Source: Thermoanaerobaculia bacterium (lineage in GTDB: Bacteria; Acidobacteriota; Thermoanaerobaculia; UBA5066). From it: a stretch of DNA of 64,000 nt. The notes below the pieces were generated by a model. The model had not been told where the DNA came from and did not search any database. It worked only from the letters and a program-made list of their open reading frames with translations. The stretch lies in the NCBI GenBank assembly GCA_046331465.1, contig JAXLQV010000001.1, forward strand, positions 671,210 to 735,209. The letters are read 5' to 3'. The first letter of the stretch is position 1. The number at the start of each line of letters is the position of its first letter. Shown piece after piece: positions 18,773 through 39,303 of the stretch. The translations under genes and the position numbers were made by a program.

Positions 18773-18894
18773 GAACGCTCCTTTCCGGGTGGCTCGCGCG
18801 GCGAGCCCGGGCCCATACTTGTCGATAGCCGTTCACCGACCGGTTCTCTGACTGCGTCCGGGACGCGGCGCCGGGCGCCGCGTCGGAGGCGCCC

Positions 18895-20892
18895 ATGAGG
18901 CTCTCCCCGCCCCTCCTCGCTCCCGCCCTCCCGGGGCTCCTTCTCCTCGCCCTCCTGCCGGCCGGCGCGCGCGCGGCCGACCCGCCGATCGACACCTCGC
19001 CTCCTCCCGCGCCGGTGAAGCTCGTCTTCGTCCACCACTCGACGGGCGAGGGGTGGCTCGCGGACGACGGGGGCGGGCTCGGAATCGCCCTGCGCGACGC
19101 CGGCTGGTTCGTGAGCGACACGAACTACGGCTGGGGTCCTCCCGACGCGGACGCGGGGGACGGGACGATCGGCGACCACACGGACATCGGGAACTGGTGG
19201 TCGTGGTTCGTCGGTCCCCACCGCGACACCTATGTCGCCGCCCTCCTCTCCGAGAGCGGGCCTCACTGCGACTACTCCCGGCGTGCCTCCGACCCGGGCG
19301 GCGCGAACCGGGTCGTGATGTTCAAGTCGTGCTTCCCGAACTCGCAGCTCGGCGGAAGCCCGTCGGACCCGGTCCCGTCCATCGCCTCGAACCCGCTTCG
19401 CGGCGAGGGGAGCGGCTCCGAGTACCACACGGTCGCGAACGCGAAAGGGATCTACCTCGCGCTGCGCGACTACTTCGCGACGCGGACCGACGTCCTCTGG
19501 GTCGTCGTCACGGCGCCGCCGCTCACCCCGGCGTCGACGGACGCCGCCGCCGCCTCGAATGCCCGCGCCTTCAACGAGTGGCTCGTGAACGAGTGGCTCG
19601 TCGGCTACCCGCAGAGGAACGTCTTCGTCTTCGACTTCTACAACGTCCTCACTTCGGACGGCGGCTCGACGCGGACGAACGACCCGGGGGCGAACGATCT
19701 CGGCTGGGCCGACGGGAACCACCACCGGGTGCGTGGCGGAGTCGTCGAGCACCTCCGGACCGTGGCGAACGACACGTCCGCCTACGGCAGCTCCCCCGAC
19801 GACAGCCACCCGACCGGCGCGGGCGGCCTCAAGGCGAGCGGCGAGCTCGTCCCGCTCCTGAACGCGGCGTGGCACTGCTGGCAGGGGACCGGGGCCTGCC
19901 CGACGGCGACGACGCCCCCCGCCTGCACGATCGGCTGCTTCGCCGTCGTCCCGGCGGAGGCGGAGGCCGGGAGCGCCCTCGGCTTCTCCGCGACGTCGAA
20001 GGTCGAGGGGTGCACGGGTGTGGCGTCCTACGACTGGGACTTCGGCGACGGCAGCCCGCACGGCGCCGGAGCGAGCGCGACGCACGCCTACGCGGCGGGG
20101 ACGTGGACCTGGCGCCTCACGGTCACGTCGGGAAGCGGGAGCTGCACGCGCACGGGGACGGTCGTCGCGACGACGGGCGGGGGAGGCGGAGGGGGCGGCA
20201 CGGCGTGGGCCGCGATCGTCCCCGCGGTGGCGCATTCGCCGGGGGACAAGGGGAGCCTCTGGCGGACGGACCTCGCCGTCGTGAACCCCGGCAGCTCCCT
20301 CGCGAGCCTGACGCTGACCTTCGTGCCGGTCGACGGCGTGCCGTCGACGCGGACGTCGACGCTCGCGGCGAACGGGACGCGCGAGTGGGCCGACGTCCTC
20401 GTCGCGCTCTTCGGCGTCGCGTCGGACGCGAGCGCGTCCGGTGCGCTCGGCATCGCTTCGGACCGGACGCTCTGCGTCGCGTCGCGGACCTTCAACCAGG
20501 GAGAGAGCGGGACGTTCGGCGGCTTCCTTCCCGCGGTGGAGCCGAAGGACGCCCTTTCGCCGGGGCAGACCGGAGTCCTCCCGCAGCTCGCGCGCAACGC
20601 CCTCTTCCGGACGAACGTCGGCGTCGCGAACCTCGGGAGCTCGGCCGTGACCGCGCGGCTCCGGCTCTGGGACGCCGACGGCGTCGCGGTGGGAGCGCCG
20701 ATCGACGTGAGCGTCCCGCCGGGCGCCCTCAACCAGGTCGTCGACCCGTTCGGCGTCGCCGGCGCGGGGGACCGCGACGTCGCGTACGCGACCGTCGAGG
20801 TGACGACGCCCGGCGGCCTCGCGTGGGCCTACGCCTCGGTCATCGACAACCGGACGGGGGACCCGACGATCGTTCCGCTCGAGGTCCCGTGA
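18895..20892 (+). CDS. secreted paralog A: signal peptide, hydrolase-like N-domain, PKD domain, Gly8 linker, and the shared roughly 200-aa C-terminal domain (unrecognised family)
   Basis: GGAGG precedes the ATG. Signal MRLSPPLLAPALPGLLLLALLPAGARA. The PKD signature WDFGDGS..TH.Y..GTWTWRLTV is present. A GGGGGGGG linker follows. The C-terminal 225 aa are homologous to the C-termini of the next two genes. Confidence 0.75.
   Translation: MRLSPPLLAPALPGLLLLALLPAGARAADPPIDTSPPPAPVKLVFVHHSTGEGWLADDGGGLGIALRDAGWFVSDTNYGWGPPDADAGDGTIGDHTDIGNWWSWFVGPHRDTYVAALLSESGPHCDYSRRASDPGGANRVVMFKSCFPNSQLGGSPSDPVPSIASNPLRGEGSGSEYHTVANAKGIYLALRDYFATRTDVLWVVVTAPPLTPASTDAAAASNARAFNEWLVNEWLVGYPQRNVFVFDFYNVLTSDGGSTRTNDPGANDLGWADGNHHRVRGGVVEHLRTVANDTSAYGSSPDDSHPTGAGGLKASGELVPLLNAAWHCWQGTGACPTATTPPACTIGCFAVVPAEAEAGSALGFSATSKVEGCTGVASYDWDFGDGSPHGAGASATHAYAAGTWTWRLTVTSGSGSCTRTGTVVATTGGGGGGGGTAWAAIVPAVAHSPGDKGSLWRTDLAVVNPGSSLASLTLTFVPVDGVPSTRTSTLAANGTREWADVLVALFGVASDASASGALGIASDRTLCVASRTFNQGESGTFGGFLPAVEPKDALSPGQTGVLPQLARNALFRTNVGVANLGSSAVTARLRLWDADGVAVGAPIDVSVPPGALNQVVDPFGVAGAGDRDVAYATVEVTTPGGLAWAYASVIDNRTGDPTIVPLEVP
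20209..20892 (+). repeat. copy 1 (most divergent) of the DNA segment encoding the shared C-terminal domain
   Basis: Encodes ..VPAVAHSPGDKGSLWRTDLAVVNPG...ASGALGIASDRTL.VASRTFN..GTFGGFLP...GVLPQL.R....RTNVGVANLG.....LRLW.ADG.A.G....VPPGAL.QV.D.F...GAGD...AYATVEVTTPGGLAWAYASVIDNRTGDPTIVPLEVP. About 55% aa identity to copies 2 and 3. Confidence 0.7.
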
Positions 20893-20905
20893 GGGAGGGC
20901 GAGCC

Positions 20906-22948
20906 GTGACCCTCCGCGACCGCACCCTCCTGTTCGCCCTGAAGTGGGCCCTCGCGGCCCTGGTCCTCCTGACGATCCTCCTCTGGAGCCGGGCGACGTC
21001 GGCCCTCCCGCAGTCCTGCGCGGGGGCCGAGCCGCCGCTCGTCACGACCCTCGACGTGAGGCAGCCGAACACCCTCGCCGAGCCGGCTCCGCGGGCCTCG
21101 TACCGCGACCCGGCGTTCGGCCGCTGCGTCACGCGGGTGACGGACCGGACCGGGGACGTCGAATCCGGCGACCCGTCCCGCGGCCTGAAGGACGAGTACT
21201 CCCGGGTCCAGGCGTGGAACGCCGACGGGTCGCTCTTTCTCCTCCGCGGCCTCGCCGGAACGACGTACGTCTGGGACGCCGCCACCCTCCGGAAGGTCCG
21301 GAAGCTCCCCGACGTCGTCGAGACCGAGCCACGCTGGGACGCGACGGACCCGAAGATCCTCTGGGCGAACGACGGGACGCGGCTCCTGCGCGTCGACGCG
21401 ACGACCGGGGAGGTGACGACGTGGCGCGACTTTGCCGGCGTCGTCCCCGGCCGGACGCTGACGTACGTCTGGACGCGATGGGAGGGGAGCCCGAGCGCCG
21501 ACGGGAGGACCTTCGGCCTGATGGCCGAGGACGAGGCGTACGAGGTCGTCGCCTTCCTCGTCTACGACCTCGCCGCCGACCGGGTCGTCGCGACGCGCGA
21601 CGTGAGCGCGTTCCCCGCGGCCCGCGCGACGGACAACGTCTCGATCAGCCTCTCGGGACGCTTCTTCCTCGCGCAGTGCGACGCCTGCCCGGCCGCGACG
21701 CTCGGCACCGACGCGAACCCGTGCGGCCTGATGGCCTGGGACCGCGACCTGAAGAACGGCCGCGGGCTCATCCGCGCCGTCGGGCACGGCGACGTCGCGT
21801 ACGACGCGTCCGGGCGGGAGGTCTTCGCCTATCAGGACAACGACACGGACGAGATCGCGTACGTCGACCTCGAGACCGGCGCGCGGACGGCGCTCCTCTC
21901 GATCGACTTCTCGAGGACGCCGATCGGCCTCCACTTCTCCGGCCGGTCCGTACGCCGCCCGGGGTGGGCGGTCGTTTCGACGCACGACGCGACGCGGACC
22001 TCGGAGGCGTGGATGGACGACTCCGTCTTCCTCGTCGAGCTGAAGCCGGGCGGGGGCGTCGTCCGCCTCGCCCACACCCGCTCCCTCGTCGACCCGGCGC
22101 AGGAGCACGACTACTGGGCCGAGCCGCACGCGACCGCGAACCGCGACCTGACGAAGGTCCTCTTCACGTCGAACTGGGGGCGCTCGGGGACGGAGGAGGT
22201 CGACACGTACCTCGTGACGCTGCCGCCCGGCTGGGCGGGCGAGGCCGCCTGCACGCCGCTCCACGTGAAGACGGTCCCGGCGGCGGCGCACGCGCCCGGC
22301 GCGTACGGAAGCCTCTGGCGGACCGACGTGGCCGTCGTGAACGCGACGGGCGCGGGGGCGTGCCTCGAGGTCCGCTTCACCCCCGCCGGCGGCGGGGAGG
22401 CGCGGACGTGGAGCGGCACGACGGCGCCCGGGACGCGCCTTTTCTCCGACGTCCTCGTCTCGCTCCTCGGCGTGGGGGCGGAGGAGAGAGCCTCGGGCGC
22501 GCTCCGCATCGCGTCGGACCGCCCGCTCGTCGTCTCCTCGCGGACCTGGAACGCGACGGAGAACGGCACGTACGGGGCGCACCTCGCGGGCGTGGGAGAG
22601 GAGCGCGCGGTGACGGAGGGGAGGCCGGGGGTCCTGCCGCAGCTGAAGAGGGGAGCGGCGAGCCGGACGAACGTCGGCCTGACGAACCCCGGGACGACCG
22701 AGGCGACGGGGTCGATCCGCCTCTTCGCCGCGAACGGGACGGCCCTCGGGAGCGCGAAGGCCGTGGCCGTCCCGGCGGGGGCGCTCGTCCAGGTGGACGA
22801 CGTCTTCGCGGCGTGCGGGGCGGGGGACGCGGCGATCGCCTGGGCGCGCGTCGACGTGGCGACTCCGGGAGGGGCGCTCTTCGCCTACGCCTCCGTCATC
22901 GACAACGCGACGTCCGACCCGACGATCGTCCCGGTGATCGTCCCGTGA
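20906..22948 (+). CDS. secreted paralog B: leader, beta-propeller-like (TolB / oligogalacturonide-lyase-like) passenger domain, and the shared C-terminal domain
   Basis: GTG start sits 7 nt after GGGAGGG. Leader MTLRDRTLLFALKWALAALVLLTILLWSRATSA. The central region has repeated propeller-blade-like segments (WDATDPKILWANDGTRLLRVDATTGEVTTWRD..). The C-terminal domain is about 80% identical to that of paralog C. Confidence 0.75.
   Translation: MTLRDRTLLFALKWALAALVLLTILLWSRATSALPQSCAGAEPPLVTTLDVRQPNTLAEPAPRASYRDPAFGRCVTRVTDRTGDVESGDPSRGLKDEYSRVQAWNADGSLFLLRGLAGTTYVWDAATLRKVRKLPDVVETEPRWDATDPKILWANDGTRLLRVDATTGEVTTWRDFAGVVPGRTLTYVWTRWEGSPSADGRTFGLMAEDEAYEVVAFLVYDLAADRVVATRDVSAFPAARATDNVSISLSGRFFLAQCDACPAATLGTDANPCGLMAWDRDLKNGRGLIRAVGHGDVAYDASGREVFAYQDNDTDEIAYVDLETGARTALLSIDFSRTPIGLHFSGRSVRRPGWAVVSTHDATRTSEAWMDDSVFLVELKPGGGVVRLAHTRSLVDPAQEHDYWAEPHATANRDLTKVLFTSNWGRSGTEEVDTYLVTLPPGWAGEAACTPLHVKTVPAAAHAPGAYGSLWRTDVAVVNATGAGACLEVRFTPAGGGEARTWSGTTAPGTRLFSDVLVSLLGVGAEERASGALRIASDRPLVVSSRTWNATENGTYGAHLAGVGEERAVTEGRPGVLPQLKRGAASRTNVGLTNPGTTEATGSIRLFAANGTALGSAKAVAVPAGALVQVDDVFAACGAGDAAIAWARVDVATPGGALFAYASVIDNATSDPTIVPVIVP
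22261..22948 (+). repeat. copy 2 of the C-terminal-domain-coding segment (imperfect direct repeat of copy 3)
   Basis: Identical or near-identical aa blocks with copy 3: GTYGAHLAGV, PGVLPQLKR, RTNVGLTN, IRLFAANGTALG, VPAGALVQVDDVFAACGAGDAAIAWARVDV, FAYASVIDNATSDPTIVPVIVP. The nucleotide sequences are clearly alignable, with mainly synonymous differences. Confidence 0.7.
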
Positions 22949-22959
22949 GGAGGTGAGCC

Positions 22960-25107
22960 GTGGCCTTTCGCGAGCGGACCCTCCTTCTCGCCTTCAAGCT
23001 CGCGCTCGCCACTCTCCTGCTTCTCTTCCTCCTCCTCCACGCCCGTCCGGCGGCGGGCGCGACGTACGTCGTCTCGCCGTCGGGAGACGACGCGAATGCG
23101 GGCACCTCGGAGCGGCCCTGGCGGACGTTCGCGCACGCGGCCGCCGTCGCCGGCCCGGGCGACCTCGTGTCGTTCCGCGGAGGGGCGTACGCGGTCCCGG
23201 ACGAGGTCGGCCTGACGCGCTCGGGGACGAGCGCCGCGCCGATCTCGTTCGTGGCGTGGACCGGCGAGACCCCGGTCCTGGACGGCGGCGGCGGGCCGGG
23301 AAGCATCGTCCACGTCCACCCGGGCGTCTCGCACATCCGCCTCTCGGGCTTCACGGTCCGCGGTTTCCGGGTCTGGGGGCTCTTCCTCGAAGGGGGAAAT
23401 CGCGGCGTCGTCCTGGACCACCTCGACGTCTCGGGGGGCGAGGCGTGCCTCCGCCTGACCGACGGCAACTCGGGCGACGCGGCGCTCCAGGGGGGCGTCG
23501 AGGACGTCCTCGTCGAGGACGGCACGTTCCACGACTCGGCGTACACGGTCATCGACTGCACGCCCGGCCCGTGCGACGGGACGACGTTCCGGCGCCTCGA
23601 GGTGAGGGGCGGGGGGCTCGGGAGCGGCATCTCCTTCGGGGCCGACGGCATCGGCCTCGAGAAGGGGCGCGCGGTCGTCGTCGAGGAGTGCTGGGTCCAC
23701 GACAACGGAGGGGACGGCGTCGACCTGAACTCGCGCGACACCTCGGGCAACGTGACGGGCGTCGTCGTCCGGCGGAACCGCGTCTCGGGGAACCGGCTCA
23801 TGGGGATCAAGCTCTGGGCGGGCGGCCGGATGGAGAACAACGCCGTCTGGGGCCAGGGGATCACGCCCGTGATGCTCGGCCGCTTCCCGGGCAGCTACGT
23901 CGTCGTGAACAACACGGTCGCGTTCAACATGTGGGACGCCGCGTTCGCCGAGCGCGACTACTCGCTCGTGGCGGGCTACCCGTGGGACGACGGGACGGCG
24001 CCCGCGATCGCGCTGACGCTCGTCGGGAACGTCTTCGCGTTCAACACGGGCCCCGCGGTGGGGAGCCCGACGGGGATCTACCTCGGGCCGAAGGTGACGC
24101 TCGTCGAGCGGAACAACCTCTGGTGGAGCCGCGAGGACAACGAGCTGCAGGCCGACTTCGTGACGGGCCGCTCCCCTGAGTTCGGCCGCGCCGAGATCCT
24201 GGACGGCACGTGGCGGGCCGCCTCGGGCCAGGGCGCCGGCGACCTCGGCGCCGACCCGCGCTTCGCGGGGGCGTGGCCTTCGGTCGACCTCCACCTCCTC
24301 GAGGGGAGCCCGGCGATCGACGCGGCGGACGCGGCGCTCGCCCCTTCGGTCGACCTCGAGGGACGGGCGCGCGACTCCCGGCCGGACGTCGGCGCGTACG
24401 AGAAGGGGAGCGCGTCGCCGCAGCCGTACGTCCGCGTCGTCCCGGCGGTGGCGCACGCCCCCGGCAGCTGGGGAAGCCTCTGGCGGACCGACGTCGATGC
24501 GGTGAACCCGGGCGCGCCGGCGACGGCGACGCTCACCTTCCGGACCGCGGGCGGAGACGTCTCGACGCGGACGACGGCGATCCCGACCGGCGCGACGCGC
24601 TTCCCCGACGTCCTCGCGACGCTCTTCGGCGTCGGGGCGGACGCGAAGGCCTCGGGCGCGCTCGAGATCGCGTCGGAACGCCCGCTCGTCGTCTCGTCGC
24701 GGACCTTCAACGCCGCCGAGAGCGGGACGTACGGTGCGCACCTCGCGGGCGTCACCGAGGCGCGGGCCGCGACGCCGGGGCGGCCGGGGGTCCTCCCTCA
24801 GCTGAAGCGGAGCGCGGCCGTGCGGACGAACGTCGGCCTGACGAACCTCGGCACGGCCGGGGTGACGGCCGCGATCCGCCTCTTCGCGGCCGACGGGACC
24901 GCCCTCGGCGGCGAATCGCTCGTCGAGGTCCCGGCGGGCGCGCTCGTCCAGGTCGACGACGTCTTCTCCGCCTGCGGGGCGGGCGACGCCGCAATCGCCT
25001 GGGCGCGGGTCGAGGTGCGGACGCCCGGCGGGCGCGCCTTCGCCTACGCGTCGGTCATCGACAACGCGACGGGCGACCCGACGATCGTTCCCCTGATCGT
25101 CCCGTGA
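22960..25107 (+). CDS. secreted paralog C: leader, right-handed parallel beta-helix (pectate-lyase / NosD-like) passenger domain, and the shared C-terminal domain
   Basis: GTG start sits after GAGGAGGTGA. Leader MAFRERTLLLAFKLALATLLLLFLLLHARPAAGA is similar to B's. PbH1-like repeats (IRLSGFTVRGFRVWGLFLEGGNRGVVLDHLDVSGG; VVVEECWVHDNGGDGVDLNS; VVVRRNRVSGNRLMGIKLW). C-terminal domain as in A and B. Confidence 0.75.
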   Translation: MAFRERTLLLAFKLALATLLLLFLLLHARPAAGATYVVSPSGDDANAGTSERPWRTFAHAAAVAGPGDLVSFRGGAYAVPDEVGLTRSGTSAAPISFVAWTGETPVLDGGGGPGSIVHVHPGVSHIRLSGFTVRGFRVWGLFLEGGNRGVVLDHLDVSGGEACLRLTDGNSGDAALQGGVEDVLVEDGTFHDSAYTVIDCTPGPCDGTTFRRLEVRGGGLGSGISFGADGIGLEKGRAVVVEECWVHDNGGDGVDLNSRDTSGNVTGVVVRRNRVSGNRLMGIKLWAGGRMENNAVWGQGITPVMLGRFPGSYVVVNNTVAFNMWDAAFAERDYSLVAGYPWDDGTAPAIALTLVGNVFAFNTGPAVGSPTGIYLGPKVTLVERNNLWWSREDNELQADFVTGRSPEFGRAEILDGTWRAASGQGAGDLGADPRFAGAWPSVDLHLLEGSPAIDAADAALAPSVDLEGRARDSRPDVGAYEKGSASPQPYVRVVPAVAHAPGSWGSLWRTDVDAVNPGAPATATLTFRTAGGDVSTRTTAIPTGATRFPDVLATLFGVGADAKASGALEIASERPLVVSSRTFNAAESGTYGAHLAGVTEARAATPGRPGVLPQLKRSAAVRTNVGLTNLGTAGVTAAIRLFAADGTALGGESLVEVPAGALVQVDDVFSACGAGDAAIAWARVEVRTPGGRAFAYASVIDNATGDPTIVPLIVP
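24421..25107 (+). repeat. copy 3 of the C-terminal-domain-coding segment
   Basis: ..VPAVAHAPGSWGSLWRTDVDAVNPG...GTYGAHLAGV..PGVLPQLKR..RTNVGLTN..IRLFAADGTALG..VPAGALVQVDDVFSACGAGDAAIAWARVEV.TPGG.AFAYASVIDNATGDPTIVPLIVP. Confidence 0.7.
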
Positions 25108-30506: not shown

Positions 30507-30587
30507 GCCCCGGATACTACGGACCGGCGCGCCCGAAAGTTCCGCAACGCCGTGCCTCCGCTCCCTCGCCTCGGGTACGCTCGGAGC

Positions 30588-31502
30588 GTGAAAGTGCTCG
30601 TGTCGCAGCCTTTACCCGAGCCGTCGACGACGGAGCTCCTCGCGGGGTTCGAGGTCGTCGTCGGCCTCCCCGGGGCGTGGGAGGAGGCGGCGCGCCTCGA
30701 TCTCCCCGAGGCGGATGCCCTCGTCCCGACCCCGCGGGAGAGGGTCACCGACGCCCTCCTCGCCCTCGCGCCGCGCCTGAAGGTCGTCGCGAACTGCGCC
30801 GTCGGGACGGACAACGTCGACCTCGAGGCGTGCCGGAAGCGCGGCGTCGTCGTGACGAACACGCCCGGCGTCCTGACGGAGGCGACGGCCGACCTCGCGT
30901 GGCTCCTCCTCCTCGCCGTGACGCGGCGGCTCCGGGAGGGGGAGGCGCTCCTCCGGTCGGGGAGCTGGAGCGGCTGGAAGCCGCTCGAGCTCCTCGGCAC
31001 CGGGCTCGCCGGCAGGACGCTCGGCGTCTACGGGATGGGGAGGATCGGGTCCGCCGTGGCGCGGCGCGCGGAGGCCTTCGGCATGCGCGTCCTCGGCGTC
31101 GTGGAAGGGGACCCCCCGGAGGCGTTCGAGAGGCTCCTCGCCGAGTCGGACGTCGTCTCGATCCACGTCCCGCTCACGCCCGCGACGCGCGGCCGGTTCG
31201 GCGCCGCCGAGCTCGCGCGGATGAGGCCCGGCGCGATCCTGATCAACACCGCGCGCGGGCCGGTCGTCGACGAGGCGGCGCTCGCGGAGGCCCTCGTGTC
31301 CGGCCACCTCGGCGGTGCCGGCCTCGACGTCTTCGAGAAGGAGCCCGAGGTCCACCCGGCGCTGCTTCCGCTCCCGAACGTCGTCCTCCTCCCGCACCTC
31401 GGCTCGGCGACGCGCGAGACGCGGCTCGCGATGGCGAGGACGGCGTGCGAGGAGGCCGCGCGGGTGCTCCGGGGCGAAGAACCGAAGAACCGGGTCGCCT
31501 GA
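30588..31502 (+). CDS. D-isomer-specific 2-hydroxyacid dehydrogenase (glyoxylate/hydroxypyruvate reductase-like)
   Basis: GVYGMGRIGSAVARRA (NAD Rossmann motif), catalytic LLPHLGSAT..R, and VKVLVSQPLP at the N-terminus. Start is GTG 30588 or 30594. The upstream 800 aa of the ORF-track entry are antisense junk over the phosphatase gene. Confidence 0.8.
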   Translation: MKVLVSQPLPEPSTTELLAGFEVVVGLPGAWEEAARLDLPEADALVPTPRERVTDALLALAPRLKVVANCAVGTDNVDLEACRKRGVVVTNTPGVLTEATADLAWLLLLAVTRRLREGEALLRSGSWSGWKPLELLGTGLAGRTLGVYGMGRIGSAVARRAEAFGMRVLGVVEGDPPEAFERLLAESDVVSIHVPLTPATRGRFGAAELARMRPGAILINTARGPVVDEAALAEALVSGHLGGAGLDVFEKEPEVHPALLPLPNVVLLPHLGSATRETRLAMARTACEEAARVLRGEEPKNRVA

Positions 31503-31521: not shown

Positions 31522-33177
31522 TCAGCTCGCGGAGAGGTCCGCCCGCGGCAGGCGTCGGGCCGCCCCGAGCATCGCGCCCGCGGCGAGGCCGAGCGCGGCG
31601 GAGGCCCACGCCGCGAGGAGGAGAGTCGCGTCGAGCCGCGCTCCGAGGAGCGCCTCGAGGAGGCTCCTGAGCCCCTCGCTCACGAAAAGGACGGGGACGG
31701 TCGCGAGGAGCGTCGAGAGCCCCATCGCGAGGAGGCCGCCCGGGCCGAGGGCGACGGAGACCGGGTTCGGGGCGTCGTAGCGGGGGAAGAGGGCGCCGAG
31801 CCCCACGTGGAGCGCCGGGATCGCGAGCCCCCCGACGGTGGCCGCGGCGAGGGCGGCTCCGAGCGGGAAGCCGCGCGCGCCGAGGACGGCGGCCGAGGCG
31901 CCGGCGAGGAGGAGCGCCGCGAGGAGCGCCGGAAGGGCCCGCACCACCCAGCGGAGGACGAGGTGGCGCGCGGGGGAGAGCGGGAGCGACCGGAGGACGA
32001 GGGCCGCGCGACCGTCCGTCGAGACGGCGGGGTAGGCGAAGCGGAGGGCGAGCGCCGAGACGAGGAAGAGGCCGAGCCCGGCCTGCAGGCCGTGGACGAC
32101 GTCGCGCGAGGCGGCGTCGCCCGCGGGGAGGAGCCTCAGGTTCAGGAGGTCGAGGACGAAGACGGCGGTCAGCGTCCCGAGCTGCGCAGGCGTCGCCGCA
32201 TCGCGCAGGAGCGTCCTCACCTCCGCCCGGAGGAGCTCGGCCGCGGCCGACGAGGCGGGCGGGACGGCACCGCGGCGCGACGGCGCCTCGGCCTGCTCGC
32301 GGCTCCGGCGGAGGAGTCGCAGGTGGAGGGGCGCGAGGGCCGTCGAGGCGAGCGCGAGGAGGGCGAGCGCACCTGCGAGCAGCGCGAGGGCCGTCGCGAG
32401 GCCGGACGCCTCTCCCGCGAGGCCCCGGGCTGCCGCGTTCGCGGCGAGCGCGAGCGGGTTCGCGCCGGGCCCTCCGGGCGGCGTCGTCCCGAGGCGGAGG
32501 AGGAGGTCGAGCGCGGCCTCAGGGTCGAGGAAGCGCTCCGGCCGCGCGCCCCGGAGGCCGACGACGGCGGCGCCGAGCCCGGAGGCCGAGAGGAACGCCG
32601 CGAGGAGGCGCGCGCGGCGCGGAGGGAAGAGCGCGACGACGCCGAGGGCGAGGACGTTCCCGGCGGTGCCCGAGAGGACGGTGACGGCGAGGAACGACGC
32701 GGCGAGCGTGGCGGACGCGACGAGAGGGGACGCGCACGTCCGCGCGGCCAGGACGAGGGCCGGGAGGACGAGGAGGAGGGCGGGTCCCGAGGCGAGCACG
32801 ATCGTCGTCGCGGCCTGCCGGAAGAGGAGCCGCGCGTGCGGCACCGGGAGCGTCGCCCGGAAGAGGAGCTCCTCCGACAGGAAGAGCGTCGAGACGGCGG
32901 TCGTCAGCGCGCCGAGGAGGAGGAGCGCGGCCGTCCCGGCGAGGGCGGCGAGGAGGAGCCGCTCGAGGAGGAACGCCGGGACGAGCGAGGGGAGGAGCTC
33001 GACGCCGCGCCGGCCGAGGCCGACGAGGTAGGAGAGCCCCGCGTACTCCCCGGCGAGGAACGCGAGGGCGGAGGCGGCGACGGCGAGGGCTCCTCCCGCC
33101 TCCCACGTCGAGCGGAACGAGAGGCCGCGCCCGGCGGCCTTCAGGGCGTTTGCGAGCGCGACGCGGCCGCCGCTCAC
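31522..33177 (-). CDS. ABC-2-type transporter permease (polytopic, about 12 TM)
   Basis: GTG start overlaps the ATPase stop (GTGA). Very hydrophobic 551-aa protein, directly downstream of the ABC ATPase. Confidence 0.55.
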   Translation of the reverse strand: MSGGRVALANALKAAGRGLSFRSTWEAGGALAVAASALAFLAGEYAGLSYLVGLGRRGVELLPSLVPAFLLERLLLAALAGTAALLLLGALTTAVSTLFLSEELLFRATLPVPHARLLFRQAATTIVLASGPALLLVLPALVLAARTCASPLVASATLAASFLAVTVLSGTAGNVLALGVVALFPPRRARLLAAFLSASGLGAAVVGLRGARPERFLDPEAALDLLLRLGTTPPGGPGANPLALAANAAARGLAGEASGLATALALLAGALALLALASTALAPLHLRLLRRSREQAEAPSRRGAVPPASSAAAELLRAEVRTLLRDAATPAQLGTLTAVFVLDLLNLRLLPAGDAASRDVVHGLQAGLGLFLVSALALRFAYPAVSTDGRAALVLRSLPLSPARHLVLRWVVRALPALLAALLLAGASAAVLGARGFPLGAALAAATVGGLAIPALHVGLGALFPRYDAPNPVSVALGPGGLLAMGLSTLLATVPVLFVSEGLRSLLEALLGARLDATLLLAAWASAALGLAAGAMLGAARRLPRADLSAS

Positions 33178-33917
33178 GGCCCTTCGTCCGACGCGAGGTC
33201 GAAGAAGAGGTCGGAGAGCCGGCCCGTCCGGCCGCGTGCCGTGATCGCGAGCGGGGCGCCGCGGGCGGCGAGCCTCCCCTTCACGAGGACGCCCGCCTCG
33301 TCGGCGACCTCCTCGGCGAGGGAGAGGTGGTGCGTCGTCAGGAGGACGGACGCGCCGGCGCCGGTCCGCTCGCGGAGCCGATCGACGAGGAGCCTCTGCG
33401 CGAGCGGGTCGAGCCCGACCATCGGCTCGTCGAGGACGAAGAGGCGCGGGTCGTGGAGGAAGGCCTGGGCGAGCGCGACCTTCTGCCGCGTGCCGTGGGA
33501 GAGGGTCTCGTTCGTCCGGTCGGCCGCGCCGTCGAGGCCGAACGCGGAGAGCTCGCGCGAGATCCGCTCCTCGAGCGCCGGCCCGCGCGCGCCGAAGACC
33601 GTGCCGACGAAGCGGAGCGTCTCGCGCGGCGTCCAGCGCGGCCAGAGCCAGGGGCGATCGGGGACGAAGCCGAGGAGCCGCTTCGCCTCGACGGGGCTCG
33701 TCGCGACGTCGACCCCGAAGACCGCGGCGGACCCGGCGGTCGGGGCGAGGAGGCCGGTGAGGAGACCGATCGCGGTCGTCTTTCCGGCCCCGTTCGGCCC
33801 GACGAGCGCGAAGACGACGCCCGGCGGCACCTCGAGCGTCAGCCCGGAGAGCGCGAGGAGGTCGCCGTAGCGCTTCGTGGCGCCGCGGAACGCGAAGGCC
33901 GGGGAGGTCTCGGGCAT
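33174..33917 (-). CDS. ABC transporter ATP-binding protein
   Basis: Walker A GPNGAGKTT, signature LSHGTRQKVALAQA, Walker B LFVLDEP, H-loop TTHHL. Confidence 0.8.
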   Translation of the reverse strand: MPETSPAFAFRGATKRYGDLLALSGLTLEVPPGVVFALVGPNGAGKTTAIGLLTGLLAPTAGSAAVFGVDVATSPVEAKRLLGFVPDRPWLWPRWTPRETLRFVGTVFGARGPALEERISRELSAFGLDGAADRTNETLSHGTRQKVALAQAFLHDPRLFVLDEPMVGLDPLAQRLLVDRLRERTGAGASVLLTTHHLSLAEEVADEAGVLVKGRLAARGAPLAITARGRTGRLSDLFFDLASDEGP

Positions 33918-33921
33918 CGCC

Positions 33922-35877
33922 TCATCGTACGGGAGCGGGCGGGGCGGCGTCGCCCGCCCGGGCGATCGACCGGGCGGGCGAGAGGTAGCCCGCACCCTCG
34001 AGGCGGCGGGCGAGGAGCCAGCCGAGCAGCGTGGTCCCCTCGACCGTGAAGTGGTCGTACCCGTCCAGCTCGGAGAGCGGCGAGAAGCTGACGCCGAAGG
34101 CGTGCATCTCGGCGGAGAGGTCGAGGAGGGGGAGGGAATACCTCGCCGAGACGGCCCTCCAGACGTCGCGGGCCACGTCGTCGGGCTCCGGCACCGCCTT
34201 CGGGAGGTAGACGAGCGTCAGCTCGCGACGCCGGCCGCTGCCGTCGACGAGGCGGCGCGAGAGGGCCCCGAGCGGCTCCCCGAGGAGCTCGACGATCTGG
34301 GGACGGAGGGCCGGGTCCGCGGCGAGGCGGGGAAGCTCCGCGAACTCGAGGGATTTCGGGAGGACCTTCACGAGCCCGCGTGCCTCGCAGTCACGGAAGA
34401 ACTTCGACGGGCGGCCGGGCTGGACCCGCTCCCGGGGCGCCCTCAGCGTGAACTCGCCGTCGAGCGCGCGGGTGGGCAGCCCGTCCGGGCCGAGGGGGCG
34501 GTCGTACCACGCCGTGAACTGCAGCGCCGAGTCGGGCCCGACGAGGACGAGGACGCGGTCGACGTCGTAGGCGGTCGCGAGCGGCGGGACGTCGGTCGCG
34601 GGCCAGAGGAAGAGCGGCTCCCAGCTGACGCGGCCCACCGAGAGGACCTGGACGCTCTCCCGGCGCCCCGCGAGGGCGGCCTCGGCGTCGAGGAAGAGCT
34701 CCAGCCGCTTCGCCAGGACCTGCATCCGGTTGATCCGTCCCCCGCTCGCGACCTTCTCGCGCTCGGAGACGTAGAACGAGCGGGAATCCCCGGCGAGGAG
34801 GAGCCGGACCGTGGCCGGCGGCTTGCGTCTCGGGTAGGCGAAGTCGGTCAGGCCGTCCGGCTGCGGCTGCTCCGAGTTCACCGAGCCGGCGAAGTCGTAG
34901 TCGCGGACGCTCCCGACGACGTTCCGGAGGGGCGAGGCGACGAAGAGCCGCCTCTCCTCCCTCGGGTCGACGACGAGCCCGGCGGGATCGGCCGACCGCG
35001 CGGCGAAGACGGGCATCTGCTCGCCCTTCTCCTGCGACAGCACCGGGCCCCAGACCGAGCGCGGCGTGGCGTCGCCGCGCGGCGAGAGGACGACGAGGGG
35101 CGTCTTCGGGTCGGCGCGCAGCGCCCAGAGCCGGTCCCCCTGGCACGCCAGGGCCCGGACCCCGGTGACGTTTCCGACGGTCTCCCGCCGTCCGTCGGAG
35201 CCGAGGAAGAAGACCCGCCCGCCCGCCGCGTCCGCGACCGCGAGCCGATCCCCCGCCGCCCCGCAGAGGCAGAGGCCGGTCGGCTTCACGGTCGACCCGG
35301 GGGGAAGGAGAGGCCGGGCCCGCGAGGTCGCGACGTCGACGCGGTAGACCTGCCTCTCTTCCGGGCTCGAGGCGTAGAGAGCGCCGGAGGGCGACGCGAC
35401 GAGCGCGAAGACCCCGTGCACGACCCGTCCCGGGATCGCGATCTCGCGGACCGCGCCGGCCTTCAGGTCGACGAGGCGCAGCCGCTCCCCGGCCTCGACG
35501 ACGACGAGCTTCTCCCCGGGGAGGAGGGCGACGAGGTAGGGGTGGTCGAGCGCGGCGGAGCGGAGGATGCCGTCGCGAAGACTCGCCTCGCCCGTCCCGG
35601 CGACCGTCTCGACGCGGTTCCCCTCGGCGAGGAGGACGACTCGGATCCGGTTGTTGTCCCGGTCGGCGACGTAGAGGCGGGTCCCGTCGGGCGAGACGGC
35701 GAGCCCGACCGGGGAGGAGAAGCGTGCCTCCGCGAACGGGCCGTCGCGGAAGCCCGGGGAGAACGAGCCGGCCACGAGGTCGTGGTAGTGCGAGACCGGG
35801 CGGATGGCCCCCGACGGCGAAGCGAGGAGGAGCGCGAGGACGGGGACGAGGCGGAGCGGACCCCCGCTCAGCGCCAC
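33922..35877 (-). CDS. secreted NHL-repeat/beta-propeller protein fused to a C-terminal SGNH/GDSL-type hydrolase domain
   Basis: Signal-like LRLVPVLALLLASPSGA. NHL-type blades (GTRLYVADRDNNRIRVV; GALYASSPEERQVYRVD). C-terminal domain with the GDS block (LLLAGDSRSFY) and the D-x-x-H block (LDGYDHFT). Start assigned to the GTG at 35877, overlapping the upstream gene's stop; this is uncertain. Confidence 0.55.
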   Translation of the reverse strand: MALSGGPLRLVPVLALLLASPSGAIRPVSHYHDLVAGSFSPGFRDGPFAEARFSSPVGLAVSPDGTRLYVADRDNNRIRVVLLAEGNRVETVAGTGEASLRDGILRSAALDHPYLVALLPGEKLVVVEAGERLRLVDLKAGAVREIAIPGRVVHGVFALVASPSGALYASSPEERQVYRVDVATSRARPLLPPGSTVKPTGLCLCGAAGDRLAVADAAGGRVFFLGSDGRRETVGNVTGVRALACQGDRLWALRADPKTPLVVLSPRGDATPRSVWGPVLSQEKGEQMPVFAARSADPAGLVVDPREERRLFVASPLRNVVGSVRDYDFAGSVNSEQPQPDGLTDFAYPRRKPPATVRLLLAGDSRSFYVSEREKVASGGRINRMQVLAKRLELFLDAEAALAGRRESVQVLSVGRVSWEPLFLWPATDVPPLATAYDVDRVLVLVGPDSALQFTAWYDRPLGPDGLPTRALDGEFTLRAPRERVQPGRPSKFFRDCEARGLVKVLPKSLEFAELPRLAADPALRPQIVELLGEPLGALSRRLVDGSGRRRELTLVYLPKAVPEPDDVARDVWRAVSARYSLPLLDLSAEMHAFGVSFSPLSELDGYDHFTVEGTTLLGWLLARRLEGAGYLSPARSIARAGDAAPPAPVR

Positions 35878-36317
35878 TCGACCTTCTCGAACAGCGAGGC
35901 GTCGGCGGCGGCGGGCGCGGGGTGCGCCGCGGCCCAGGTGGAGAGCCGGGTGAGCCGCGCCGTCAGCCGCGCGACGCGGGTGAGGCTGTCCCACTTCGGC
36001 TTGCCGTAGCCGTCCTTCTCCTTGACGACGACGACGTCGATGCGGACCTCGTCCGGGTCGTTCGCCTTCAGGCGGCTCGCGGCGAGGCGCGCGGCGGCAC
36101 CGAGGAGGGCCCCCCTGTCGGCAGCCTTCGTTCCGGCGGCGGCCGCTCCCGCGTCCCAGAGGACGTGGACGTAGTCCGCCTTGCGCGTGACGACGACGTC
36201 GCCGTCCGGGGTCGCGCCCGCCGCCGGGCGCCCCGCGACGAAGGCCGCCGTCAGCGCGACCAGAGCGCCCGCGAGAAGCGCGCGACGTCCGCGAGCGGAT
36301 AGAAGAACAGGAGCCAT
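35868..36317 (-). CDS. small exported hypothetical protein (possible AlgF-like accessory of the MBOAT system)
   Basis: 149 aa from ATG 36317. Signal-like MAPVLLSARGRRALLAGALVALTAAFVAG. Composition is acceptable but Ala-rich. Confidence 0.3.
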   Translation of the reverse strand: MAPVLLSARGRRALLAGALVALTAAFVAGRPAAGATPDGDVVVTRKADYVHVLWDAGAAAAGTKAADRGALLGAAARLAASRLKANDPDEVRIDVVVVKEKDGYGKPKWDSLTRVARLTARLTRLSTWAAAHPAPAAADASLFEKVEWR

Positions 36318-37441
36318 CCGAACGCGACGAAGCATACGGTGAGGATAGTGGAAAGGAGGTTCGCGGCGGGGACCCGGGAAAACCGGACCGCGGCGGGGCT
36401 CGATCGCCAGAGCGCGTGGGCGCCGAGCCCCGCGCCGTGGTAGAGCCCCCAGACGCCGAAGTGCCACGCGGCCCCGTGCCAGAGGCCGCAGAGGAACATC
36501 GTGAGGGCGAGGTTCAGGACGCGGCGGAGCATCCCGTGCCGGCTCCCCCCGAGCGGGACGTAGAGGTAGTCGCGGATCCAGGACGAGAGCGAGATGTGCC
36601 AGCGCTGCCAGAACTCGGCGATGTTCCTCGCGGCGTACGGAGTCCGGAAGTTGGGAGGCAGCTCGACGCCGATCATGCGCGAGAGCCCGATGGCGATGTC
36701 GCTGTAGCCGCTGAAGTCGAAGAGGATCCTCACCGAGAGGAGCGCGACGAGGAGGACGACGGACGTCCGGGACGGCGGCGCGGCCTGGACGAGCGAGATC
36801 GCCTCGGCGGCGGCGTCGGCGACGACGAGCTTCTTGGCGAAGCCGAGCGCCGCCTGTCCCGCGCCGAGGACGAGCGCCTCGGGCCGGGGCCGGGGGAGGC
36901 CCCCCTCGAGCTGCGCGAGGAACGGCTGGAACCGCTTGATCGGTCCCGAGACGATCGACGGGAAGTGGATCGCGAAGAGGGCGAAGCGGGCGGGGTCCCG
37001 AATCGGCGGGCTTCCCTTGTAGACGTCGGTGAGGTAGTGGACGAACTCGAACGTGAAGAACGAGATCGCGAGCGGCAGCGCCGGCGGCCGGACCGCGGGG
37101 AGAGCGAGTCCGACCGGGCCGCCGAGGAGGGCCCCGAGCGACCCGAGCAGGAGCCCCTGGTACTTGTAGGCGACGAGCCCGGCGACCGGGACGACGAGGA
37201 AGGCGAAGAAGAGCCGCCGCCGGGGCGTCCCTTCCGCCCGGCCCACGAGGAGGCCGCCCGCGTACGTGGCGGCGCCCATCGCGATGATCGGCGCGACGCC
37301 GGCGGGGCCGGCGAAGTGGTAGTGGAAGACGGCGCTCAGCGCGAGGAGCGCCGCGAGCCGCACGCGGGGGCCGGGCGCCAGCGCGAGGACGAGGAACGCC
37401 GCCGGGAAGAAGACGAGGAACCAGCTCGTGTTGAAGATCAC
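36251..37441 (-). CDS. MBOAT-family membrane-bound O-acyltransferase (AlgI/DltB/PatA-like)
   Basis: 396-aa polytopic protein with the MBOAT invariant-His region (FLCGLWHGAAWHFGVWGLYHG), plus WQRWHISLSSWIRDYLYVPLGGSR. Confidence 0.8.
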   Translation of the reverse strand: MIFNTSWFLVFFPAAFLVLALAPGPRVRLAALLALSAVFHYHFAGPAGVAPIIAMGAATYAGGLLVGRAEGTPRRRLFFAFLVVPVAGLVAYKYQGLLLGSLGALLGGPVGLALPAVRPPALPLAISFFTFEFVHYLTDVYKGSPPIRDPARFALFAIHFPSIVSGPIKRFQPFLAQLEGGLPRPRPEALVLGAGQAALGFAKKLVVADAAAEAISLVQAAPPSRTSVVLLVALLSVRILFDFSGYSDIAIGLSRMIGVELPPNFRTPYAARNIAEFWQRWHISLSSWIRDYLYVPLGGSRHGMLRRVLNLALTMFLCGLWHGAAWHFGVWGLYHGAGLGAHALWRSSPAAVRFSRVPAANLLSTILTVCFVAFGWLLFFYPLADVARFSRALWSR

Positions 37442-37563
37442 GGCGGCTCAGAAGTCGACGTAGATGAAGCCGGACGACGAGAGGTCGCCGGTGAGGACGA
37501 GGACGAGGACGATCGCCGCGAAGATGGCCGCGCCGACGAGGAGGCCGCGGCGGAAGGAGCGGC

Positions 37564-38649
37564 TCACGGGGCGACCCCGCCCGCCCCGCGTCCGAGGGTC
37601 GAGGCGAGCGCCTCGGCGACCCGCGCGTTTCCCTGGCCCGTCAGGTGGCAGTGATCGAGGAAGGCGTCTTCCGGGAGGGCGTCGGCGAGGTCGAGGTACC
37701 GGCCTGCGGGCCCGAGACCGGCCTCCACCGCGCGTCTCAGGAGGTCGCGGTTCGACCGGAGACGCTCCGGGGAGAGGGACGCCGTCTCGACCGGGTTCTG
37801 CGGCGTCAGGGCGACGAGGGTGCGGGCGCTCCGCCGCCGCGCGAGGATTCTCGAGAGCGAGGCGAAGGCGGGAGCCGAGGCGTTCCAGGCGCGGTCCTCG
37901 TAGATCGGCGCGATCCGGAGCCGCAGGACGGAGGCGGCGAGGTCGTCGTCGTCGGCGGCCGGGAGGAGGCGTGCCAGGACGCGCTCGAGGACGTCCTTCC
38001 GCGAGGGGGCGAAGGCCCGAGCCCGGAGGACCTGCGTCACGAGGAAGAAGGGCGACGCGGCGGCCGCGGACTCGTAGAGCCGGCTGCCGAGCCGGTCTCC
38101 CGCCGGCCGCGCGGATCGAAGCGCCACGTCGCCCCGAGGCAGGAAGGCGTCCCGCGACGCTGCGGCCCCCGGGGACTCGTACGGGGCGGCGAACATCCGG
38201 AAGTTCAGGAGGAGGACGGCGTCCCGCGGCTCCTCGTCGAGCGACTCGAGGAGGCCCTCGAGGTCCGGGAGGAGCATGCCGTCGGCGGAGAGCGGGAGGA
38301 CGCCGCGCGGCGCGAGCCTCCGGCCGAGCTCGGCCGTCAGCGTCTTCCCGCGCGCGCCGGGGACCCGGTGCTGCAGGAGAGCGGTCGGGCCGGCGACGCT
38401 GTCGCCGAGAAGGGCGACGGCATCCCCCGGCGCGAAGGCCCTGGCGCGGGCCCTCGCCTCCGCGACGCTCGTCAGCGAGCCGGACGCGTCGACGAGCCGG
38501 TAGAGCCCTCCCGTCGCGAGGAGGGAGCGGCAGACGAGCTCGGCGAGGAGAAGGAGCGCGGCCAGGCTCGTCAGGGCGCCGAGGGCGAAGGACCGGCCCG
38601 CGTCCTCGCGATCCGCGATCGCGGCAGCCCCGCCCCCCTCGCCTGGCAT
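37564..38649 (-). CDS. membrane-anchored SGNH/GDSL-like hydrolase-family protein (AlgJ/PatB-like partner of the MBOAT)
   Basis: ATG at 38649 (GGAG 3 nt upstream). N-terminal TM (FALGALTSLAALLLLAELV), a GDS block (ALLGDSVAGP), and a C-terminal D-x-x-H block (LDHCHLTGQGN). The long upstream extension in the ORF track is junk. Confidence 0.5.
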   Translation of the reverse strand: MPGEGGGAAAIADREDAGRSFALGALTSLAALLLLAELVCRSLLATGGLYRLVDASGSLTSVAEARARARAFAPGDAVALLGDSVAGPTALLQHRVPGARGKTLTAELGRRLAPRGVLPLSADGMLLPDLEGLLESLDEEPRDAVLLLNFRMFAAPYESPGAAASRDAFLPRGDVALRSARPAGDRLGSRLYESAAAASPFFLVTQVLRARAFAPSRKDVLERVLARLLPAADDDDLAASVLRLRIAPIYEDRAWNASAPAFASLSRILARRRSARTLVALTPQNPVETASLSPERLRSNRDLLRRAVEAGLGPAGRYLDLADALPEDAFLDHCHLTGQGNARVAEALASTLGRGAGGVAP

Positions 38650-38742: not shown

Positions 38743-39303
38743 ATGCGGCTCGCGCTCCTCGCGCTCTTCGCCCTTCCGCTCCTGACCGCCGCCCTCGTCA
38801 CCGTCCCCGCCGCCTCGGCGGTCGTCCGCTTCTCGATCGTCTCGCCCGCGTTCGGGGCCGGGGCCTCGATCCCGCCGAGGCACTCCTGCGAGGGGGCGGA
38901 CGTCTCGCCGCAGCTGAAGTGGGCCGGCATCCCCGACGGGACGAAGTCGCTCGCCCTCGTCGTCGACGACCCGGACGCCCCCGACCCGGCGGCCCCGAAG
39001 ATGACCTGGGTCCACTGGGTCCTCTACGACCTTCCGCCGGCGGCGCGGGGCCTCCCCGAGGGCGTCGCCCCGAAGGATCTGCCCCCGGGGACGCGCGAGG
39101 GGCGGAACGACTGGAAGCGGACCGGCTGGGGAGGTCCCTGCCCGCCGATCGGCACGCACCGCTACTTCTTCAAGCTCTACGCCCTCGACGCCGTCCTCCC
39201 CGACCTCGGGAGCCCGACGAAGGCGGCCCTCGAGAAGGCGATGGAGGGGCACGTCCTCGGGAAGGCGGAGCTCGTCGGGACGTACCGGAAGGCAGGCCGC
39301 TGA
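38743..39303 (+). CDS. YbhB/YbcL-family (PEBP / Raf-kinase-inhibitor-like) periplasmic protein
   Basis: GGAGG RBS. Signal peptide. PEBP signature DDPDAPDP...WVHWVLYDLP...GPCPPIGTHRYFFKLYALD. Confidence 0.75.
   Translation: MRLALLALFALPLLTAALVTVPAASAVVRFSIVSPAFGAGASIPPRHSCEGADVSPQLKWAGIPDGTKSLALVVDDPDAPDPAAPKMTWVHWVLYDLPPAARGLPEGVAPKDLPPGTREGRNDWKRTGWGGPCPPIGTHRYFFKLYALDAVLPDLGSPTKAALEKAMEGHVLGKAELVGTYRKAGR

Follow-up and report, generated by a model that had tools for sequence, protein, structure and literature searches.

What does the tight run of minus-strand genes at positions 38649 to 31522 of this 64-kb stretch of DNA (the window, meaning the whole of the stretch analysed) encode, and do all of its members belong to one system? 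The window comes from a metagenome-assembled genome (MAG) of Thermoanaerobaculia (Acidobacteriota) with 73% GC, and 72-77% GC around the gene cluster. An earlier note, made from the sequence alone, had listed six open reading frames (ORFs) here as an O-acylation operon centred on an MBOAT protein and coupled to a dedicated ABC-2 exporter. All six are real and lie, overlapping or abutting, at the coordinates given there, but a seventh gene, a 39-aa ORF at 37567..37448, had been overlooked. The cluster as observed is real, and far beyond chance. Its first five genes (38649..33922) probably constitute an extracytoplasmic O-acylation module, an MBOAT-SGNH acyl-shuttle relay in which the shuttle is a separate microprotein; the class proposed earlier, an MBOAT-centred extracytoplasmic O-acylation system with an SGNH partner, is the right one. 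The two ABC genes, from comparison with related genomes, appear to be an older, independent gene pair with the module lying upstream of it. The genes are as follows.

p1: 38649..37564, minus strand, 361 aa; membrane-anchored DltD-like SGNH protein
Microprotein: 37567..37448, minus strand, 39 aa; DltX-like, with a terminal FxYxxF
MBOAT: 37441..36251, minus strand, 396 aa; PF03062 match, short DltB-like form
p149: 36317..35868, minus strand, 149 aa (155 aa from the ATG at 36335); secreted accessory
NHL protein: 35877..33922, minus strand, 651 aa; secreted, propeller plus C-terminal alpha/beta domain
ABC ATPase: 33917..33174, minus strand, 247 aa; ABC_tran, outside the conserved module
ABC permease: 33177..31522, minus strand, 551 aa; PF16949, outside the conserved module

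From p1 to the permease the successive genes are joined by a 4-nt GTGA overlap, a 6-nt gap, overlaps of 67 nt and 10 nt, a 4-nt gap and a 4-nt overlap, and the GC content at third codon positions (GC3) is 0.90-0.97 in all seven ORFs. Translational coupling of the genes, as had been suggested, is judged to be right. A scan for sigma-70 promoters and terminators is uninformative in DNA of 73% GC, yielding no promoters and one terminator-like site where 1.3 are expected.

The shuttle microprotein and its partners

The overlooked gene encodes the microprotein MSRSFRRGLLVGAAIFAAIVLVLVLTGDLSSSGFIYVDF* (the asterisk marks the stop), which has a short basic N-terminus, one transmembrane (TM) helix and an acidic tail, and ends in FIYVDF*, the FxYxxF acyl-shuttle motif of DltX. 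In Dlt systems DltB moves D-alanine from DltC to the invariant Tyr of the DltX C-terminal FxYxxF, and DltX delivers it to DltD, an SGNH protein, at the catalytic Ser (PMC12148441); the Bacillus thuringiensis DltX has 48 aa, the same layout as the window microprotein and the ending FIYNEF (PMC5541007). Because the N-terminus is basic and the tail acidic, the C-terminus is expected to be extracytoplasmic, and Tyr36 is the predicted acyl carrier.

Related loci were identified by a scan of one genome per species, which gave 45 loci encoding p1 relatives; these, together with loci fetched by exact protein look-up, were searched in six frames with phmmer and yielded 33 non-redundant loci with the split module. 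The order p1, microprotein and short MBOAT (~400 aa in intact ORFs) is seen in all 33, which are carried by MAGs labelled Thermoanaerobaculia, Holophagales, other Acidobacteriota, candidate division FCPU426, Firestonebacteria, 'proteobacterium' or simply 'bacterium'. At one of these (L004/L018, the same contig; L004 10275..12470) the MBOAT frame runs into a DHBP-synthase domain to give a 731-739-aa ORF and the p149 and NHL genes are missing, with p1 and the microprotein (FIYADF*) intact; the locus has either decayed or been rearranged, or else is misassembled.

An ORF of 39 codons could be a chance or untranslated one, the MBOAT acting without a tyrosine shuttle, and it is true that it is very short, that gene callers often miss such ORFs, and that it has no above-threshold Pfam match. 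This explanation is nevertheless extremely improbable. The GTG start of the ORF overlaps the p1 stop (GTGA) and its stop lies 6 nt ahead of the MBOAT start, its GC3 of 0.97 is like that of the surrounding coding genes, and among the 745 window ORFs of at least 25 aa it alone has a terminal FxYxxF. The same 39-aa gene is called on two ENA metagenome contigs, and a counterpart ending F[IL]Y[VA]DF* occupies the same position in 33 of 33 related loci across phyla, in each case with the stop directly after the motif. Across 20 of these sequences 11 residues are invariant, including F34, Y36, D38 and F39.

The MBOAT offers a second line of evidence. It matches PF03062 (E 6e-25), and the His-containing string WHGAAWHFGVWGLYHG quoted in the earlier note is found at its residues 321-336. 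Two conserved histidines, His282 (RWH) and His322 (LWHG), align with the DltB motifs RWH and (L/F)WHG; DltB TIGR04091 is the sole NCBIfam match (175.8 bits, partial, and under the cut-off of 375), and DltB 6bug is the best match among PDB sequences (E 1.6e-29). The C-terminus reads ...ARFSRALWSR*, with neither a shuttle motif nor C-terminal shuttle helices. Residues 3-388 align to residues ~9-410 of MBOATs of 472-504 aa from Nannocystaceae and Planctomycetota (35-42% identity, E down to 1e-76), which extend ~60-130 residues further, include a hydrophobic C-terminal stretch and end in FIYFQF*. The window MBOAT is truncated relative to these fused proteins and lacks the shuttle motif, and the microprotein therefore supplies exactly the part that is missing. 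Nine more distant loci encode MBOATs of this 472-504-aa form ending in FIYFQF*, have no microprotein, and carry a p1-like gene downstream. The two arrangements are mutually exclusive in the data set: the presence of the microprotein tracks the short MBOAT perfectly, and its absence tracks the long fused one.

The third component, p1, is identical to hypothetical protein U0529_02845, encoded on a 2.3-Mb contig of a Thermoanaerobaculia (Acidobacteriota) MAG, and represents a rare family, a profile search of 1.84 billion representatives returning 704 proteins at E<=0.001 and 98 at E<=1e-30. It has no Pfam or NCBIfam family match at E<=1, and its alignment profile finds chance-level matches only among PDB sequences. 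In an alignment of 57 sequences G82-D83-S84, G124, N149 and D332-x-x-H335 are invariant and make up the four SGNH blocks, so the GDS and DxxH blocks described in the earlier note are real. The AlphaFold model is confident (predicted local distance difference test, pLDDT, 92.6; predicted template modelling score, pTM, 0.89) and includes a long N-terminal helix that would anchor the protein in the membrane; its best structural match is DltD. The concern that neither hydrolase-like partner might have an SGNH fold does not apply to p1, which has both the SGNH blocks and a confident model, and thus provides an SGNH-fold partner with a Ser-His-Asp triad, the predicted catalytic residues being Ser84, Asp332 and His335. 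We consider p1 to be probably the protein to which the microprotein tyrosine first hands the acyl group.

An interrupted copy of p1 is seen in a near-identical strain, in which an ENA contig of 2250 nt (P0080; window ~38649..38460) has the first ~62 p1 codons fused in frame to an IS3-type transposase with rve domains. As p1 is disrupted there by insertion of an insertion sequence, the module is dispensable in part of the population.

The ABC transporter genes and the flanks of the module

A different relationship is seen with the last two genes of the run. The families and adjacency reported for them are correct: the ATPase, which starts 4 nt past the NHL gene stop, matches ABC_tran (E 6.5e-26) and is DrrA-like, and the permease, whose GTG start overlaps the ATPase stop, matches PF16949 (ABC_tran_2; E 8e-32) and has homologues named 'ABC-2 type' by JGI. 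Their role as a dedicated exporter of the system is not borne out. An O-acetylation operon of the AlgI/J/F/X or PatA/B kind, coupled to a dedicated ABC-2 exporter of the acylated polymer or glycolipid, would accord with the arrangement of all seven window genes on one strand with overlaps or gaps of no more than 6 nt, which makes read-through likely, with the same order being kept in L050 (70% identity in the NHL protein), and with a layout resembling AlgIJFX. However, 31 of the 33 related loci have no ABC ATPase or PF16949 permease within ~10 kb, the pair following the module in the window and L050 only, and in L034, a relative with 56% identity, a histidine-kinase-like gene is present after the NHL gene instead. 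Conversely, L054 and L055 (permease identity 74% and 72%, respectively) have the same flanks as the window and contain the pair without the module, in a block composed of a sigma factor, M13 peptidase, the ATPase and permease, a 2-hydroxyacid dehydrogenase or SpoIIE, and Fpg, in which the ABC pair directly adjoins the M13 peptidase; in L056 the pair adjoins GDH and 2-hydroxyacid dehydrogenase genes, again with no module. The permease family is also far commoner than the module proteins, with 218 homologues at E<=1e-10, many of them at 72-87% identity, a range in which p1 has only about six homologues and the NHL protein only five. Profile searches for AlgX, AlgF, PatB and DltD give no Pfam or NCBIfam match in the module proteins, and the MBOAT is without the fused motif of AlgI and PatA.

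We therefore regard the exporter-coupled operon as very unlikely, comparative genomics having ruled out the ABC exporter as a component of the system. Because the pair stands alone in syntenic relatives and is lacking from nearly all of the module loci, it is a separate and pre-existing unit. Either the module, with the PEBP gene in the window, was inserted upstream of an older ABC operon, or it was lost from the relatives, and the units are separable either way. In the window transcription is likely to read through from the module into the ABC genes, but this does not show that the two work together; genes can come to lie as tightly packed against an ABC transporter as in an operon simply because of the site a module occupies.

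The gene run is bounded by a divergent PEBP gene (38743..39303, 93-nt gap) and a convergent 2-hydroxyacid dehydrogenase gene (30549..31502). The former, on the plus strand and divergent from p1, encodes a secreted PEBP-family protein (PF01161, E 3.5e-47); it is missing at the matching position in L050, L054 and L055, and may thus have come with the module or independently. Three consecutive ORFs of ~700 aa occupy 18829..25107 (plus strand): one with a PKD domain, one without a family match and one with a right-handed beta-helix (Pel9A-like), in that order. The syntenic loci L050 and L054 each have a similar beta-helix/PKD gene at their edge. The neighbours in the window as a whole include genes for these PKD and beta-helix secreted proteins, an aldo-keto reductase, MCP, a peptidase, a TonB-type outer membrane protein, PEBP, M13 peptidase, GDH, SpoIIE and Fpg.

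The secreted proteins, the acyl donor and the proposed relay

The two remaining module genes encode secreted proteins. The N-terminus of p149 resembles a signal peptide, and its gene runs over the 3' end of the MBOAT gene by 67-85 nt, depending on whether it starts at the ATG at 36317 or at 36335; the upstream start is favoured because the N-terminal MLRRxRMA is kept in L034. At L050 the gene caller took a downstream start, giving a 107-aa product without a signal peptide. The conserved core of p149 is DxYGxPKWD, and where the related loci reach far enough, most have a homologue after the MBOAT or the NHL gene. Its description as a small secreted protein holds, but 'AlgF-like' was a matter of its size: p149 has no match in Pfam, NCBIfam (E<=1) or the PDB sequences, AlgF included, and its profile gives chance-level PDB matches only. 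Identity with AlgF is thus without sequence support, the likeness being one of size and location alone.

The NHL protein combines a signal peptide with a six-bladed NHL beta-propeller (residues ~30-330), which is modelled with confidence, and a C-terminal alpha/beta domain (~355-630). In that domain Gly363 and Ser365 are invariant and Asp364 is present in at least 90% of sequences, while His609 is invariant across 19 C-terminal domains. Its strand-helix order mirrors that of p1, including a large insertion between strands 3 and 4. The C-terminal domain is likely to have an SGNH fold and is probably a second SGNH-like acyl-transfer or esterase domain. Of the fusion described in the earlier note, therefore, the propeller is confirmed and the SGNH domain is supported indirectly, through hhalign and strand order. 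Family matches at E<=1 are of propeller type only, apart from a chance NCBIfam match to CIS12 (E 0.02), and the profile of the C-terminal domain finds PDB sequences at chance level only.

NHL-SGNH matches number zero to four per locus and are present in about two thirds of the loci. Up to four separate matches are seen in L017 and L030, some of them fragments, and a 1341-aa protein in L052 (12407..16432) resembles a tandem of two NHL-SGNH units; multiple or tandem units suggest a diversified acceptor-binding component. A 660-aa protein following p149 in L002 was considered as a divergent NHL-SGNH protein and ruled out (hhalign probability 0.1%). Natural fusions also occur, joining a p1-like domain to an MBOAT in P0416 and P0439 (777 and 796 aa) and to an NHL propeller in P0432 (1094 aa). 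About ten proteins of 1040-1165 aa join this group, with p1-like SGNH plus MBOAT, or plus NHL propeller and further sequence. In the SGNH-MBOAT fusions GSST or GAST replaces GDS and there is no terminal FxYxxF, so these may use another shuttle arrangement.

The second SGNH-like domain admits another role. With the same core relay, the NHL-SGNH protein could be an opposing Ape1-like esterase, targeted to the polymer by its propeller, with p1 alone acylating the acceptor. The patA-patB-ape1 cluster does carry an SGNH esterase, Ape1 (PMC12148441), and a gene that is missing in several loci and multicopy in others would fit an accessory or tuning enzyme, as would a domain in which only Ser and His are invariant and residues of SGNH blocks II and III are not evident. 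On the other hand, the P0432 fusion of a p1-type domain to an NHL propeller suggests one transfer path, and AlgJ/AlgX, as cited in PMC12148441, is a precedent for two SGNH-like proteins in one acetylation relay. We regard the esterase role as unlikely, while giving it a real chance.

As to the donor, no ORF like an acyl carrier protein or DltC is found by phmmer in the window or beside the split modules (with Escherichia coli AcpP and Bacillus subtilis DltC as queries), no PP-binding or AMP-binding gene adjoins the module according to the precomputed Pfam labels of neighbours at annotated loci, and neither the module and the rest of the window nor the surroundings of the 33 loci contain a dltA/dltC-like gene. 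With no gene for a carrier protein or a ligase alongside the module, an acyl-CoA is the most likely donor, with acetyl-CoA as the usual case, by analogy with PatA. These findings also bear on whether this is a genuine Dlt system of a diderm, with dltA and dltC elsewhere in the genome and D-alanine being delivered to a lipopolysaccharide-like or other anionic polymer. That DltB is the only NCBIfam match and the best PDB sequence match of the MBOAT, and DltD the best structural match of p1, speaks for it. Beyond the missing dltA and dltC genes, however, the DltB equivalog score is less than half of its cut-off, Pfam DltD matches are lacking, the gene order is D-X-B rather than dltXABCD, the MBOAT is nearer to the fused Nannocystaceae and Planctomycetota MBOATs than to DltB, and the conserved extra partners p149 and NHL-SGNH are not known in Dlt. 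Dlt D-alanylation is thus quite unlikely.

No polysaccharide-synthesis genes that would name the acceptor are found nearby in the window. In FCPU426-type loci (L002 5551..8628, L051 6724..9850, L052 5161..8216 and L053 6591..9689) the module is divergent beside two SQS_PSY genes and an amino-oxidase gene, in an hpnCDE-like squalene-synthesis arrangement, and some of these loci have three ~700-aa proteins, one with a weak PMT_2 match. The window has no such neighbours; where they occur, they might point to an acceptor related to lipids or simply reflect clade synteny. FCPU426 MAGs also contain a second MBOAT system (L053 17076..20847, minus strand; L013 4829..6786, plus strand) with FkbH_N, an 83-aa PP-binding carrier, a 531-534-aa MBOAT ending FLYFRF*, an LB_356/DUF1574 SGNH protein and MaoC; it is carrier-protein-linked and has a fused shuttle, the reverse of the combination in the window module.

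For the observed folds, motifs, split architecture and conservation, a relay chemistry can be proposed by analogy with the mechanisms established for DltB/DltX/DltD and PatA/PatB (PMC12148441). A plausible scenario is that the MBOAT would accept the acyl group of a thioester donor in the cytoplasm, most probably acetyl-CoA or some other acyl-CoA, and that its His322 would esterify Tyr36 in the FIYVDF motif of the microprotein at the periplasmic face. The acyl-tyrosine would then swing to the p1 active site and acylate Ser84 of the predicted triad (Ser84/Asp332/His335), and p1 could pass the acyl group directly to an envelope acceptor, or else to Ser365 of the soluble NHL-propeller/SGNH-like protein, in which case the propeller would hold the acceptor and p149 would be an accessory. 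A fuller reading, put forward tentatively as possible but short of likely, is that the module represents a non-Dlt lineage of envelope acylation with a free DltX-type shuttle, an acyl-CoA donor, no carrier protein and a two-tier SGNH relay from p1 to NHL/SGNH, assisted by p149, acting on an envelope polymer or lipid of Acidobacteriota, FCPU426 and Firestonebacteria.

Several observations weigh against the proposed shuttle relay and its extensions. Every carrier of the module is an uncultured MAG. The window microprotein matches neither Pfam DltX (PF12459) nor any other Pfam or NCBIfam family above threshold, and among 20 members of its family Pfam DltX matches are found in four, all sub-threshold (best E 0.0099; cut-off 25 bits); the microprotein alignment profile likewise finds PDB sequences at chance level only. 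p1 has no Pfam DltD match and is related weakly to the uncharacterised SGNH-clan families LB_356 (PF27429) and DUF1574 (PF07611). The hhalign comparison of the NHL C-terminal domain with the p1 family is modest (E 7e-4, probability 26%), although it runs end to end with GDS aligned to GDS and His to His, and fold searches with the whole NHL model returned propellers only, which filled both result lists. Six loci that extend more than 2.5 kb past the MBOAT (L002, L004, L009, L011, L019 and L021) have no NHL-SGNH match, which means that the relay does not require its second step. Genes for a carrier protein and a ligase could also lie elsewhere in the genome.

The relation to LB_356 and DUF1574 is seen in several p1 homologues with weak precomputed LB_356 matches, the window p1 having no match in the Pfam copy searched, a copy without PF27429. 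These families also adjoin MBOATs, an example being the second system of L053. Neither a function nor a structure is known for DUF1574 (PMC9487903), and placing p1 with LB_356/DUF1574 therefore adds no mechanism; a literature search on LB_356/PF27429 returned unrelated papers only.

Comparison with known acyl-shuttle systems

Bacterial MBOAT-SGNH acyl-shuttle acyltransferases form a recognised class (Schultz 2023 and Anderson 2025, as summarised in PMC12148441), and the module contains what the class comprises in general, namely an MBOAT with a catalytic His, an FxYxxF on the partner microprotein and an SGNH partner. In PatA, AlgI and other MBOATs the shuttle motif is fused, on two extra C-terminal helices, and pathways other than Dlt are said to be without a DltX-like microprotein (PMC12148441). 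The current model confines a separate DltX and a carrier-protein donor to Dlt, with a fused tyrosine shuttle and acyl-CoA elsewhere (PMC12148441). The module breaks this link between a free shuttle and a carrier donor, in that, in diderm uncultured lineages, it pairs a short DltB-like MBOAT with a DltX-like shuttle that is free, while neither DltA nor DltC is encoded alongside. If the fuller reading of a non-Dlt lineage is true, then together with the second FCPU426 system it would make split or fused shuttle and carrier or CoA donor independent design choices, and uncultured phyla that are widespread in soil and peat would have a newly defined envelope modification. The module suggests that an uncharacterised modification of the envelope exists in Acidobacteriota and candidate phyla, is a natural test of shuttle portability, and yields a signature, a TM helix followed by GDLSxSxFIYVDF*, for finding microproteins that usually go unannotated.

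The likeness to Dlt (DltXABCD of Firmicutes) lies in the short MBOAT without shuttle helices, the N-terminally anchored SGNH protein, and the separate microprotein, of 40-50 aa in Dlt and 39 aa here, with its basic N-terminus, one TM helix and FxYxxF (FIYVDF, compared with FIYNEF in B. thuringiensis DltX). The module differs in having no DltA ligase or DltC carrier alongside, in its D-X-B gene order, and in its diderm uncultured hosts (Acidobacteriota, FCPU426 and Firestonebacteria). Its sequences fall below the family thresholds of DltB, DltX and DltD, by sequence the MBOAT sits nearer to MBOATs with a fused motif than to DltB, and p149 and NHL-SGNH are extra conserved partners.

With PatA/PatB, AlgI, WssH and PatA1 the module shares the lack of a carrier protein, a likely acyl-CoA donor, and the sequence of MBOAT His, FxYxxF shuttle and SGNH Ser-His-Asp acceptor (PMC12148441). 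The related loci in which a fused FIYFQF* MBOAT is followed by a p1-like SGNH gene belong precisely to this type, whereas the window module lacks a fused FxYxxF and the pairing of PatA with PatB (DUF459). The resemblance to AlgIJFX is one of layout, with an MBOAT, an anchored SGNH-like protein, a small periplasmic accessory, and a soluble SGNH-like protein bearing a binding module (a carbohydrate-binding module in AlgX, the NHL propeller here); it differs in that no Pfam AlgX or AlgF match is found, the module lies outside any polysaccharide biosynthesis operon, and the shuttle is split.

The analogy drawn in the earlier note to AlgI/J/F/X and PatA/B is accordingly fair as to layout but misses the core. 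With a DltX-like microprotein and a short DltB-type MBOAT that lacks the motif, the architecture is Dlt-like rather than AlgI- or PatA-like, and no AlgX, AlgF or PatB match accompanies it. Because the equivalog and family thresholds are not reached and DltA and DltC are not found beside it, the module stands outside Dlt; because a fused motif is lacking, it stands outside PatA/AlgI. It belongs to neither family and is best filed as a variant of the MBOAT-SGNH acyl-shuttle systems.

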